Shown piece by piece: positions 234-3,276 of a stretch of DNA of 42,728 nucleotides. Source of the stretch: an uncultured Nitrospinota bacterium (GTDB lineage Bacteria > UBA8248); the NCBI GenBank assembly GCA_947258645.1, contig CAMYJL010000001.1, positions 1 through 42,728 on the forward strand, given 5' to 3'. The position numbers and the translations under genes are program-made. Numbering within the stretch: position 1 is the stretch's first letter; each line of letters starts with the position of its first letter. The notes under the pieces are model-generated. The model was not told the origin of the DNA and did no database searches. It was given only the letters and a program-made list of their open reading frames with translations.

Positions 234-713
234 TTATGTGGCACACGGATTCGCTTTAGCTCGCCCCGTGCCCACGTCGCAGGGGTTCCGGGGGCTTTTC
301 CGCAATTCCTCGACAACTTCCCTGGGCCACGGATTCTGAACCGCGCAAGGGTTCGCGGGGCTCAGGAGATACGTCACGCTCCAGGGCGGAAGCATGATCG
401 TCGCGGCGAGGATCAAAACGCCCAGATAAAGATAGGTGTCGCAGACCGTCCTGGGCCTGAGTGAGGCGAATATTCCGGAAACGCCCCCTTTCCGCCCAAT
501 CTGAAGACGCGTTTTAAAATTCCCGAAAAACGTCCACGCAAGCGCCACGGCCGCGAACGCGATGAAATAAGGCCGGTAGAAAAACAAACTCCCCAACCCG
601 CCGACAATCGAAGCCCCGAGACCCAGGGCCAGCCTGAAGGTCCATCAGGCGGATGAAGCGGACCCCGGAATAACCGACCCGGAAAAACCGGATTTTCGAT
701 GCTCCTCTCCCAT
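234..713 (-). CDS. merT: MerT-family membrane protein, copy 1, with one in-frame TGA (647..645; candidate selenocysteine, or else a pseudogene)
   Basis: GGGGAGAGAG SD plus ATG at 713, then 22 sense codons, TGA, then TGG. The same frame continues into the listed TTG ORF 234..596. The product ...GSASSA-U-WTFRLALGLGASIVGGLGSLFFYRPYFIAFAAVALAW...LYLGVLILAATIMLPPW resembles MerT (ASACCLGPLVLIALGFSGAW..EPYRPIFIG..LGFPYV). Confidence 0.6.
612..630 (-). other. SECIS-like hairpin GGCCCU-GGGUCUC-GGGGCU inside merT-like copy 1
   Basis: 6-bp stem with a 7-nt loop containing GGUCU. It starts 14 nt after the TGA at 647..645, which is 11 nt after the following TGG codon. The stem differs from the copy-2 hairpin only by pair-preserving changes. 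Confidence 0.5.
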
Positions 714-774
714 CTCTCTCCCCTCTTTTTGATAGGACGCATCCCCATGCGCCATCATTTACGGACAAGGGAAA

Positions 775-805
775 AGCTACACTCCGTACCGTGGTACGTG
801 GTCAA
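775..805 (-). promoter_or_regulatory. MerR-type operator/promoter upstream of merT-like copy 1
   Basis: The minus strand reads TTGACC-ACGTACCACGGTACGGAGT-GTAGCT: a -35 box, a 19-nt spacer and a weak -10 box. The spacer contains CGTAC-N4-GTACGGA. Compare the Tn501/Tn21 merOP, TTGACT-CCGTACATGAGTACGGAAG-TAAGGT, with dyad TCCGTAC-N4-GTACGGA. It also holds a perfect CGTACC-AC-GGTACG palindrome (785..798). Confidence 0.6.
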
Positions 806-867
806 CCGGAAAAACCGGGGCTGTCTGGCCCGTTCCGGCCGAACCCTCGTTTTGCCTGTTTTTTCAG

Positions 868-1314
868 CTACTTTTGCGCACAGGGATTTTGGGGGGCGCG
901 CGGGTTTTTCGGAGCACAGGGATTTGCTGAAGCGGGGCCAGGGCTTTTGGCCCTGACAAGGAGAGGGCGCCCCCAGTGGGGAAACGCCATCAAAGCGATC
1001 ACAGCCACCACGCCCAGGTAGAGGCGCAGGTCTTTTCCGGTCCTGGGCCAGAACTCGCCGATCACCGCCGCCGCGCCGCGCGGCCGGGCAAGGCGGACGC
1101 GATTCTTGAAATGGCGGGAGAGCGTCCACCCGAGCATCAGGATCGCGAACGCGATGAAGTAGGGACGATAGGGGGTCAGGCCGCCCAGCCCGCCCAACAC
1201 CGAGGCCCCGAGACCCGGAGCCAGCGCCGGGGCTCATCAAGCAGAGCAGGCCGCACCCGAAAAAATGGATCCGATCCAGCCGAATTTTTTTGCCTTGTCC
1301 GCATCCGCCATCAT
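868..1314 (-). CDS. merT: MerT-family membrane protein, copy 2, with two consecutive in-frame TGA codons (1239..1234; candidate Sec-Sec in place of the MerT Cys-Cys)
   Basis: GAGGAGA SD plus ATG-ATG at 1314, then 25 sense codons (MMADADKAKKFGWIGSIFSGAACSA), TGA TGA, and 121 further open codons in the same frame (the listed ORF 868..1200). APALAPGLGASVLGGLGGLTPYRPYFIAFAILMLGW...LYLGVVAVIALMAFPHW matches MerT TM1-TM3. SA-TGA-TGA aligns with MerT SA-C-C. Confidence 0.7.
1204..1222 (-). other. SECIS-like hairpin GGCUCC-GGGUCUC-GGGGCC inside merT-like copy 2
   Basis: It starts exactly 11 nt after the second TGA. Numbering the U of that UGA as 1, the loop carries G22 G23 U24 C25 U26. This is the same sequence at the same positions as the apical loop of the E. 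coli fdhF SECIS (UGA-N11-GGUUGCAGGUCUGCACC). Confidence 0.6.
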
Positions 1315-1361
1315 CGCTCTCCTCTGCGACTTGCCGCCGGGAACCACTCTCCATGCGTAAA

Positions 1362-1393
1362 AGGATACACGCCGTATTATGGTCCAGAGTCAA
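1362..1393 (-). promoter_or_regulatory. candidate promoter of merT-like copy 2 with an over-long spacer (TTGACT-N20-TATCCT)
   Basis: -35 TTGACT (1393..1388) and -10 TATCCT (1367..1362). The spacer CTGGACCATAATACGGCGTG contains only an imperfect dyad (CCATA-A-TACGG). Spacers of 19-20 nt are typical of MerR-family-controlled promoters. Confidence 0.35.
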
Positions 1394-1419
1394 GCGGTTT
1401 CGTGCGGAAAAATAGAGGC

Positions 1420-2502
1420 TCAACTCCCGTTCAGCTTCCGGTAGGCCTTCTGCATGATGAGGGCGTCGTATTCGAGGGCCGGGCTTTCGCAGACGACCCT
1501 TCCCACGACGCCGAAGTCGATCAGCGCCCGGAAGAGATCCGGGTAGTTCATGTCGGACTCGTCCAGCTCGAGGTGATGCGCCTCGCCCTTTTCGGTGTAG
1601 GCGATGCCCGAAAGATGAATGTGCATCGAGGCGAGCGCCGCTTTCCCCGCCTTGTTCTTGATCTGCTCGAGCTGGGCGGCGAATTCATCGTAGGTGTTTT
1701 TCGCCCCGGCCGATCGGGCGTGCATGTGGGCGAAGTCCACCGTCATGCCCACATTTTTCCCCTGAAGCTCCCTGGTCATCCCGGTCAGCTCATCGAGCGA
1801 GCCGAACTGGCTCCCCTTCCCGGTCGTCTCCGGGTCGAGCCGCACCGGGCACCCTTCTTCCGCCAGAATGTCGGCCAGCTCGCCGACCTGCTTTGTCATG
1901 AACGCGTACACCTCGGCGGCGTCGCGCTTTTGATAAAAGCCGGGATGAAAACACGCGCCGTCGCCGCCGCAGGCCTGGAGCGCCCGCGCCGTGTCGAGGA
2001 CGCGCTTCCGGCTCGCCTCGAGCTTTTCCGCTTCCAGCGAATAGAGGTTGATGTAGTAGGGCCCGTGCGCCGTCACGCGGACACCCGTTTCTTTCCGGGC
2101 CGCCATCACCTCTTCGCAGGTCTCGGGCCGGATGCGCACGCCGTGGACGAACTCCATCTCGTACACGCCGAGGCCGAGCTCGTGCAGGCGCTTGATCGCG
2201 CCGGGATGGCTCTGCGGTTTGGCCGAATGGGGGACGCCCCCCGTCCCGAAAAAGATGCGGTCGGTTTTTTTGGGCCTGGCGTTCACGCTGAGCGGCCCGT
2301 CGTAGACGCGGCCCTTGGGCTTTTCCTTCGGAACGCCGGGGGCCCAGCCCATGACGTTCGCGGGCGCTTTTTTCTTGGCCGGTTTTTTCTTCGCGGCCGT
2401 TTTCTTAACGGCGGTCTTGGTCTTCGCCGCCGGTTTTTTAACTGTCTTCGCGGCCGATTTGGCGGCCTTTTTCTTGAGCGGCAAAGGAACCTCCGTCTTC
2501 AA
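1420..2502 (-). CDS. endonuclease IV-like / xylose-isomerase-like TIM-barrel protein with a Lys/Ala-rich histone H1-like N-terminal tail
   Basis: The N-terminus is KKKAAKSAAKTVKKPAAKTKTAVKKTAAKKKPAKKKAP. It is followed by AP-endonuclease-family-2-like motifs (HGPYYINL, FHPGFY, DFAHMHA, HIHLSGI..E). Confidence 0.7.
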   Translation of the reverse strand: MKTEVPLPLKKKAAKSAAKTVKKPAAKTKTAVKKTAAKKKPAKKKAPANVMGWAPGVPKEKPKGRVYDGPLSVNARPKKTDRIFFGTGGVPHSAKPQSHPGAIKRLHELGLGVYEMEFVHGVRIRPETCEEVMAARKETGVRVTAHGPYYINLYSLEAEKLEASRKRVLDTARALQACGGDGACFHPGFYQKRDAAEVYAFMTKQVGELADILAEEGCPVRLDPETTGKGSQFGSLDELTGMTRELQGKNVGMTVDFAHMHARSAGAKNTYDEFAAQLEQIKNKAGKAALASMHIHLSGIAYTEKGEAHHLELDESDMNYPDLFRALIDFGVVGRVVCESPALEYDALIMQKAYRKLNGS

Positions 2503-2580
2503 GGGGAGCGAAAAACGAGTCTCGTCAAGGACGCAAGAACCATATCAAATCGGCGGGTGCCATGCACCGGAGCGTGCCTC

Positions 2581-3276
2581 TTACCGCGAACCACCCCGCA
2601 TTCCCTGTGGCGGCATATCAGGAAAATCGCCGTAAACTTTCGCTCGGCGGATCACGCCGCCATCGGACGGAACGCTTTCCTCCAGCCACTCATCAAGCTG
2701 GGCCAGGAGCTCCTTCCGCCCCCAGCCCTTCTCGGCGCTGGTGAGGATGGGCCCGGACCACCGTCCATAGCGAGCGCCGCCCTCCATCAGGGTCTTAATC
2801 AGATCGTCCGCCGCCTTTTTCCGCTCGCCCTGCTTGAGCTTGTCGGTCTTCGTGAGGGCGAGACAGGCGGGCAGATTGGCCTCGGCCAGCCACTCGAGAA
2901 GGTCGAGGTCCATTTCCCTCGCGCCGCGCCGTGAATCGATCAGGACGATCACGCCCCGAAGCGCCTCACGCTCGCGGAGGTACTGATCGACCATGCGCTG
3001 CCAGTTTTTCTTTACGGCGATGGGAACTTTCGCGAAGCCGTAGCCCGGCAGATCGACGAGCACGAAGGTGTTGTCGATCCGGAAAAAGTTGATGAGCTGG
3101 GTCTTGCCGGGCGTACCGCTCGTCTTGGCGAGCTTCTTCCGGCGAGTGAGCGCGTTGATGAGAGAAGACTTGCCGACGTTGCTCCGGCCGGCGATGGCGA
3201 TCTCAGGAACTTCAGCGAGGATCCATCCGCGCTGGTCCGCCGCGCTGGTGATGAACTCGGCCTGCTCGATTTTCAT
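2581..3276 (-). CDS. engB: ribosome biogenesis GTP-binding protein YsxC/EngB
   Basis: G1 motif AGRSNVGKSSLINAL, DLPGYG, and TKTDK (NKxD-like). Confidence 0.9.
   Translation of the reverse strand: MKIEQAEFITSAADQRGWILAEVPEIAIAGRSNVGKSSLINALTRRKKLAKTSGTPGKTQLINFFRIDNTFVLVDLPGYGFAKVPIAVKKNWQRMVDQYLREREALRGVIVLIDSRRGAREMDLDLLEWLAEANLPACLALTKTDKLKQGERKKAADDLIKTLMEGGARYGRWSGPILTSAEKGWGRKELLAQLDEWLEESVPSDGGVIRRAKVYGDFPDMPPQGMRGGSR

Follow-up and report, generated by a model that had tools for sequence, protein, structure and literature searches.

The window analyzed here, a stretch of 42,728 nucleotides, harbors near its left end a group of minus-strand genes that resemble parts of a mercury resistance system. 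Gene A (868-1314, minus strand) encodes a MerT-like protein of ~148 aa and contains a tandem in-frame TGA TGA (1239-1234) at the site that the Cys-Cys pair occupies in MerT. Gene B (234-712, minus strand) encodes a MerT-like membrane protein of ~159 aa, starts with an ATG at 712 preceded by the ribosome-binding stretch GAGGGGAGAG, and has an in-frame TGA (647-645) followed by TGG at the MerT Cys-Cys position. The third gene, which is glutaredoxin (Grx)-like (Pfam Glutaredoxin, 54 bits), leaves the window start on the minus strand, such that only its first 32 nt (1-32) are present, with a TTG start at 32-30 and the N-terminus MSDVKDVVVYS..., which we compared with those of the related contigs L012, (M)SEDVKEVIVYSS, and L006, MNEGVKEVIVYSSTT-U-PPC. 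The flanking genes encode an EngB-type GTPase and an AP_endonuc_2-fold protein ('EndoIV-like'), as recognized in a first-pass annotation made from the sequence alone, and that annotation's statement that the window has no merR, merP, merA or merB holds. Two long open reading frames, at 976-2934 (plus strand; 652 aa) and 755-1423 (minus strand; 222 aa), lie over the real genes but in the opposite strand or a different frame; they are high-G+C artefacts, not genes. Rfam and tRNA scans of the 42.7-kb window returned no match.

Upstream of gene B lies a promoter/operator element, P2, at positions 774-805 of the minus strand. The string that the first-pass annotation had quoted for it (minus strand, 805 to 775; TTGACC ACGTACCACGGTACGGAGT GTAGCT) is letter-exact, but the parse offered with it, a 19-nt spacer followed by a -10 box GTAGCT, is better replaced by one in which the -35 hexamer TTGACC (805-800) is followed by a 20-bp spacer (799-780) and a -10 hexamer TAGCTT (779-774), one base farther from the -35. 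The 19-bp parse was rejected because the essential -11 position would then hold T in place of A. Of 17 distinct related sites, 16 have the -11 A and the -7 T in the 20-bp register and 14 have the full TANNNT, and all three copies of the element in the window read TANNNT in this register (TAGTAT in P1, TAGCTT in P2 and TATCCT in P3). Spacers of 19-20 bp are a hallmark of MerR-family and mer promoters, and shortening of the spacer abolishes regulation in MerR-family promoters (PMC9909328, PMC4551924).

The spacer of P2 holds a dyad composed of CACGTAC (800-794), CACG (793-790) and GTACGGA (789-783). We verified the reference operator TCCGTAC-N4-GTACGGA on the R100/Tn21 record (plasmid R100, merR-merT gap, CTTGACTCCGTACATGAGTACGGAAGTAAGGT, a 45-mer shared identically by 2,211 plasmid records), and against it the right half-site of P2 matches at 7/7 and the left at 5/7 positions, just as claimed before, giving 12/14 identical positions with the dyad in the same register to the -35 as in R100. 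The two arms of P2 match each other at 5/7 positions, while those of the corresponding sites match at 7/7 in L006 and at 6/7 in L002, L005 and L008. P2 has two features by which MerR-class promoters are recognized, namely a dyad-symmetric operator inside the spacer and a -35/-10 separation of 19-20 bp in place of 17 +/- 1, and it also has the half-sites of the strict Tn21/Tn501 mer operator, abutting the -35. Taken at the level of sequence, these features support assignment of P2 as a putative sigma-70 promoter of the MerR class, its spacer filled by a dyad of the mer-operator type.

Scanning of the window revealed further copies of the element, with three sites of the full architecture in all; a second dyad with at most two mismatches lies at 113-130. 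P1 (104-135, minus strand; TTGACT-CTGTACCTAAGTACGGGTTG-TAGTAT) has the same architecture as P2 and is placed to drive the Grx-like gene that leaves the window start. P3 (1362-1393, minus strand; TTGACT-CTGGACCATAATACGGCGTG-TATCCT) is placed to drive gene A, and retains the -35, the 20-bp spacer and the -10, with a degenerate dyad whose arms match at 3/7 positions. Each of the three elements P1, P2 and P3 thus precedes a single gene, the Grx-like gene, gene B and gene A, respectively. Gene B had been described as an 'orphan' merT-like gene; it is instead the middle unit of a three-promoter cluster, the window being cut 32 nt into the next gene. P3 also shares TTGACTCTGGA and GTGTATCCT with the Escherichia coli zntA promoter. 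Where the A-type gene comes second in a relative's cluster, the promoter before it is likewise degenerate and has lost TANNNT, and the gene may then rely on read-through from the upstream promoter.

The cluster was found in three homologue contigs, four MAG contigs (three labelled Nitrospinota and one 'bacterium') and one metagenome contig. Across the relatives, contigs of Nitrospinota and of uncultured bacteria related to them, the element conforms to the consensus TTGACT-CCGTAC-N4-GTACGG-GGTG-TAGGTT, and 17 distinct sites (L001-L006, L008, L011-L016 and the window) precede, on the coding strand, genes of the same three types. For the first 14 sites, each column of the 32-nt core carries 1.0 bit of information on average, versus 0.15-0.16 in the 30-nt flanks. 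The closest relative, L003, keeps P2 at 29/32 positions (TTGACCGCGTACCACGGTACGGAGTGTAATTT), its -10 becoming TAATTT, and sites equivalent to P1 precede the Grx-like gene in L001, L004, L005, L006, L008 and L012-L016. The operator of L006 is a perfect CCCCGTAC-CATA-GTACGGGG palindrome, and L002 carries the 18 specified Tn21 bases in TTGACT-CCGTAC-ATGA-GTACGG unchanged, the N4 being unspecified. In L011-L016, ~90 kb of sequence, the operator occurs only upstream of MerT-like and/or Grx-like genes.

The gene neighborhood is conserved as well. The order DUF1015, EngB, EndoIV-like gene, island is identical in the window, L006, L011 and L013-L016, and in L011-L016 the EndoIV-like gene is followed by a merR-bearing island, a MerE-like gene and a TrxB-type reductase. 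Seven further syntenic contigs, obtained by searching with the regulator of the relatives, agree with this arrangement. Judged by the synteny with L006, the window very probably derives from a Nitrospinota relative. Related islands hold genes for MerT-like, Grx-like, Zn-ribbon, CopZ-like zinc-finger, MerR and MerE proteins, and then comes the reductase, which matches the TrxB model and not MerA. The insertion site of the island is fixed between the EndoIV-like gene and a TrxB-type reductase/Fer4/QRPTase block (L006, L011 and L013-L016; in the window by synteny), and its gene content varies, L011 holding a RES-Xre toxin-antitoxin pair. None of merA, merP or merB is present in any island seen, which is odd for classical Hg resistance and is a caveat on a mercury reading of the locus; the strict mer operator controls a merA operon, usually with merP, and the element here does not.

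Both UGA-containing genes score below the cut-off of the Pfam MerT model (PF02411; 31.1 bits for gene A and 18.8 for gene B versus a cut-off of 32.9), and neither combines a sufficient score with a Cys-Cys pair in the first transmembrane helix, so we refer to their products as MerT-like and not as certified members of the family. An in-frame TGA occupies the identical codon in 13/13 homologous genes seen. All nine A-type homologues seen carry TGATGA (1239-1234 in the window; L001-L008), which implies a putative adjacent Sec-Sec pair in place of Cys-Cys in the product of gene A. In B-type genes the pair is TGATGC (Sec-Cys) in L005 (1187), L006 (6487) and L007 (106) and TGATGG (Sec-Trp) in the window (647-642), where the second metal ligand thus appears to have been lost or replaced in this genome. 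Eleven nucleotides past the UGA UGG of gene B lies the hairpin GGCCCUG-GGUCU-CGGGGCU (612-630, minus strand), and eleven past the UGA UGA of gene A the hairpin GGCUCCG-GGUCU-CGGGGCC (1204-1222, minus strand); both resemble a bacterial SECIS element. The hairpin recurs in the homologues with the consensus GGYYCYG-(G/A)GUCU-CGGNGCY at a fixed distance after the UGA, and its stem survives G-U and A-U changes.

The C-terminal tails of the MerT-like proteins contain NPC(A) repeats (868-930 and 234-370 in the window, minus strand, e.g., ANPCAPKNPRAPQNPCAQK; up to five NPCA at 2090-2190 of L005), which are probably extra thiol metal-binding sites. Close homologues of these proteins number only three among 5.8 billion clustered proteins, in all three of which the annotated start codon lies past the UGA, so that the gene is truncated, and a metagenome scan with the MerT-like alignment found only one additional locus. 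The family is either rare or missed due to the UGA. Other selenoproteins accompany it in the relatives. The Grx-like gene encodes SSTT-U-(T/P)PC (L001 580-825, L004 885-1130, L005 2354-2599, L006 7653-7898 and L008 693-938), and gene callers begin it after the UGA. The LysW-like Zn-ribbon gene beside it encodes CPV-U-G in L005 (2614-2910), L006 (7913-8209) and L008 (953-1249) and CPTCG in L004 (1188-1442) and L001, a Cys/Sec swap in a zinc-ribbon ligand. Lastly, a fusion of a MerT-like and an HMA domain is encoded at 3084-3760 of L004. Its reading frame holds two TGA codons (GMS-U-PFT-U) and seems to be shifted near 3190, and against the NCBIfam model for UxxU metal-binding selenoproteins it reaches 60 bits, below the cut-off.

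Searches of the window by tblastn with MerR, CueR and ZntR sequences and with Nitrospinota MerR found no MerR-family gene, and only genes A and B were matched, as they were when Nitrospinota MerE, Grx, Zn-ribbon and TrxB proteins served as queries. A MerR homologue is, however, present in 10/10 related contigs that are long enough (L004-L006, L011-L016 and L018). In L004 (2595-2999), L005 (2950-3357) and L006 (8250-8699) it is located on the same strand as the Grx-like gene, 0.6-1.7 kb downstream of the start of that gene, and the gap between the Zn-ribbon gene and merR is ~40 nt in the relatives, which makes it probable that the regulator is transcribed together with these genes from the Grx promoter and controls its own expression. 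Since the window breaks off after 32 nt of the Grx-like gene, the absence of merR is probably an edge effect, and synteny would place the merR of this genome ~0.6-2.5 kb beyond the left edge. L018, where the gene context differs, encodes a MerR homologue that is more distant (62% identical to the L004 protein), and the sequence TTGCCC-CCGTACTTAGGTACAGGGTT-TATATT stands in front of its operon.

The regulators of the relatives are 36-39% identical to R100 MerR. Their best NCBIfam match is TIGR02051 (MerR) with 128-132 bits, which is below the equivalog cut-off of 150.85 and exceeds the best ZntR, CueR or CadR/PbrR model by 21-32 bits, and their best solved structures are Tn501 MerR (5CRL) followed by Bacillus megaterium MerR (4UA1). 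Aligned with R100 MerR, they all retain Cys82, Cys117, Cys126 and Pro127 at identical spacing, and their recognition-helix segment GVNVETxRYYxRxGL hardly differs from that of R100 MerR, in line with binding to the same half-site.

Taken together, the core claim of the first-pass annotation, that this is a MerR-type long-spacer operator-promoter of a functional UGA-containing merT-like gene, holds on sequence comparison, carried by the three copies in the window, the conservation of the element in more than ten contigs whose flanks are not conserved, the merR gene close to it in the related contigs, and the UGA with its hairpin in all homologues. We consider it quite probable that the element is a MerR-class switch bound by the MerR homologue of the island. 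In such a mechanism, the -35 TTGACC and the -10 TAGCTT, 20 bp apart, would be too far from each other and out of phase for RNA polymerase, a dimer of the island-encoded MerR homologue would occupy the dyad, and the apo-regulator would keep the promoter off without metal. Binding of a soft metal, most likely Hg(II), would then kink and under-twist the spacer, such that the hexamers align and RNA polymerase can open the -10. The transcript of gene B would be expected to start at ~767, ~55 nt ahead of the ATG at 712, and the sister promoters at 1362-1393 and 104-135 would act likewise on gene A and the Grx-like gene. With merR downstream of the Grx-like and Zn-ribbon genes and co-transcribed with them, the regulator would feed back on itself.

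Two other explanations must be weighed against this switch. Chance likeness to a mer operator, or a plain constitutive promoter without a dedicated regulator, with the GTAC dyad being incidental or a weak hairpin or terminator after gene A, is highly improbable and already largely refuted by the comparative data. It could draw on the imperfect left half-site (5/7), on the lack of enrichment of the dyad when three mismatches are allowed (2 seen versus 1.0 expected), and on a standard sigma-70 scan that called none of the three sites, P2 included; that scan, however, allowed spacers of 16-18 bp only, which explains its miss. When at most two mismatches are allowed, TCCGTAC-N4-GTACGGA has two matches (113-130 and 783-800) versus 0.07 expected in 42.7 kb, a number reached in 0/100 shuffles, and GTAC-N4-GTAC has two versus 0.02 expected in the 42.7-kb window. 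The full architecture, searched as TTGAC-N21-TANNNT, has three matches where 0.3 would be expected, and every one of them is a minus-strand site in the leftmost 1.4 kb (104-135, 774-805 and 1362-1393). Scored with a weight matrix built from the related sites, the three window sites included, these three reach 36-47 bits and the next-best window position 14.8. Moreover, the motif is kept in many contigs amid unconserved flanks and always together with a merR gene. We also rejected a role of the dyad at the RNA level, as a hairpin or terminator; it precedes the predicted transcript start, its arms are only 5-7 bp, no T-run follows it, and a terminator scan found none between genes A and B.

The alternative that concerns the signal retains the architecture and has the sensor answer, in place of Hg(II), a different soft or thiophilic metal (Cd, Pb, Zn, Cu(I), Ag or Au) or a selenium or redox signal, the island then serving general metal handling. 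We regard this as unlikely, and it draws on several features of the locus. The score of the regulator falls short of the MerR equivalog cut-off, and the ZntR, CueR and CadR/PbrR models still give it 94-108 bits; the spacer of 20 bp, and in P3 also the ending GTG-TATCCT, recall E. coli PzntA (TTGACTCTGGAGTCGACTCCAGAGTGTATCCT); CopZ-type zinc-finger or iron-sulfur chaperones and HMA domains occur in some islands; and merA occurs in none. A similar three-cysteine site serves the PbrR/CadR-type sensors of Pb and Cd, so the triad would also be compatible with these metals. On the other hand, the half-sites (CCGTAC/GTACGG) are those of the mer operator and not of PzntA, the best family and structure matches are Hg-responsive MerR proteins, and the cysteine spacing of 35 and 9 residues is exactly that of Tn21 MerR. 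An 8-residue loop between the last two cysteines suits tridentate Hg(II), the loop of CueR having 7 residues (PMC4551924), and by alignment the regulators of the relatives have the 8-residue loop. The neighbors, finally, are MerT-like and MerE (Pfam MerE, 38.9 bits versus a cut-off of 22.8). On the strength of the half-sites, the family and structure matches, the cysteine triad and these neighbors, we lean toward Hg(II) as the inducer, with less confidence than we place in the switch itself.

The element is an addition to the known MerR-class operator-promoters, and its proposed mechanism is textbook. What is unusual is the arrangement and the cargo, namely three single-gene operators, putative Sec-Sec MerT-like proteins and a selenoprotein-rich, reductase-less island, in a phylum, the Nitrospinota, in which to our knowledge mer regulation has not been dissected. 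The UGA-interrupted merT-like genes, which gene callers truncate, emerge as real, separately regulated units, and the operator consensus TTGACY-CCGTAC-N4-GTACGG-N4-TANNNT allows in silico mapping of the Nitrospinota MerR regulon. A mer-like island that lacks merA and is rich in selenoproteins bears on mercury handling by abundant marine nitrite oxidizers. As a speculation that we ourselves hold to be doubtful, the three operators could form the regulon of a Nitrospinota MerR for selenium-based, mercuric-reductase-free mercury handling, in which Sec-Sec carriers, a Sec-glutaredoxin and, in some lineages, a Sec zinc-ribbon would bind, traffic or sequester Hg(II) by Hg-Se chemistry, leaving it unreduced. 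Nitrospina has been proposed to be the main Hg methylator of the oxic ocean, and a merR is reported to adjoin its hgcA-like genes (bioRxiv 10.1101/648329; see also PMC12484752), so the operator could link Hg sensing to methylation genes. A regulon map could therefore include hgcA-like loci, whose control by MerR is hypothesized; the HgcA cap-helix motif had no match in six-frame translations of the window and L001-L010.

The closest known counterpart of P2 is the PmerT/merO region of Tn21/Tn501, with which it shares an over-long spacer and a TTGAC(T/C) -35 abutting, in identical register, a CCGTAC-N4-GTACGG-type dyad; the islands of the relatives share with Tn21/Tn501 the Cys82/Cys117/Cys126 triad, the near-identical recognition helix and a MerT-like gene downstream. 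The spacer is 19 bp in Tn21/Tn501 and 20 bp here, with the -10 one base farther, and mer promoters with spacers of 19-20 bp have been described (PMC4551924). In Tn21/Tn501, merR is divergent with an overlapping PmerR, whereas in the relatives merR is co-directional and downstream, leaving no overlapping PmerR, and thus the strict arrangement of a 19-bp spacer with a divergent, overlapping merR promoter is not the one seen here. Tn21/Tn501 uses one promoter for merTPCAD, whereas here there are three operator-promoters with one gene each, and the cluster has no merP, merA or merD. Tn21/Tn501 operators are carried on a transposon, while the present locus is chromosomal and at a fixed syntenic site.

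The E. coli promoter PzntA, controlled by ZntR and found immediately ahead of zntA in 5,414 E. coli genomes, has the same geometry (TTGACT-CTGGAGTCGACTCCAGAGTG-TATCCT), with a 20-bp spacer in which the dyad center is 8 bp from the -35 and 12 bp from the -10, but its half-sites are CTGGAGTC/GACTCCAG in contrast to CCGTAC/GTACGG here. In Gram-positive mer operons of the Bacillus RC607 and Staphylococcus aureus pI258 type, merR is co-directional with the structural genes and is transcribed from a MerR-controlled promoter; the MerR of B. megaterium (4UA1) is the second-best structure match of the regulators described here. Unlike the present island, those operons begin with merR, include merA and are not known to encode selenoproteins.

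MerT selenoproteins with a CU motif have been reported (Haft, bioRxiv 10.1101/2022.07.06.499078), a Carboxydothermus MerT selenoprotein has been listed (PMC9312934), and the NCBIfam family NF045683 (MerT_CopZ_Se) likewise comprises MerT-like membrane proteins with Sec at the metal site of the first helix. The proteins encoded here are far below the cut-offs of the known MerT selenoprotein models (28.6 bits versus 375). Whereas the known MerT selenoproteins have C-U at this site, the pair is predicted to be U-U in gene A and its homologues (nine genes) and U-W or U-C in genes of the B type, and the proteins described here differ further in bearing NPC-repeat tails.
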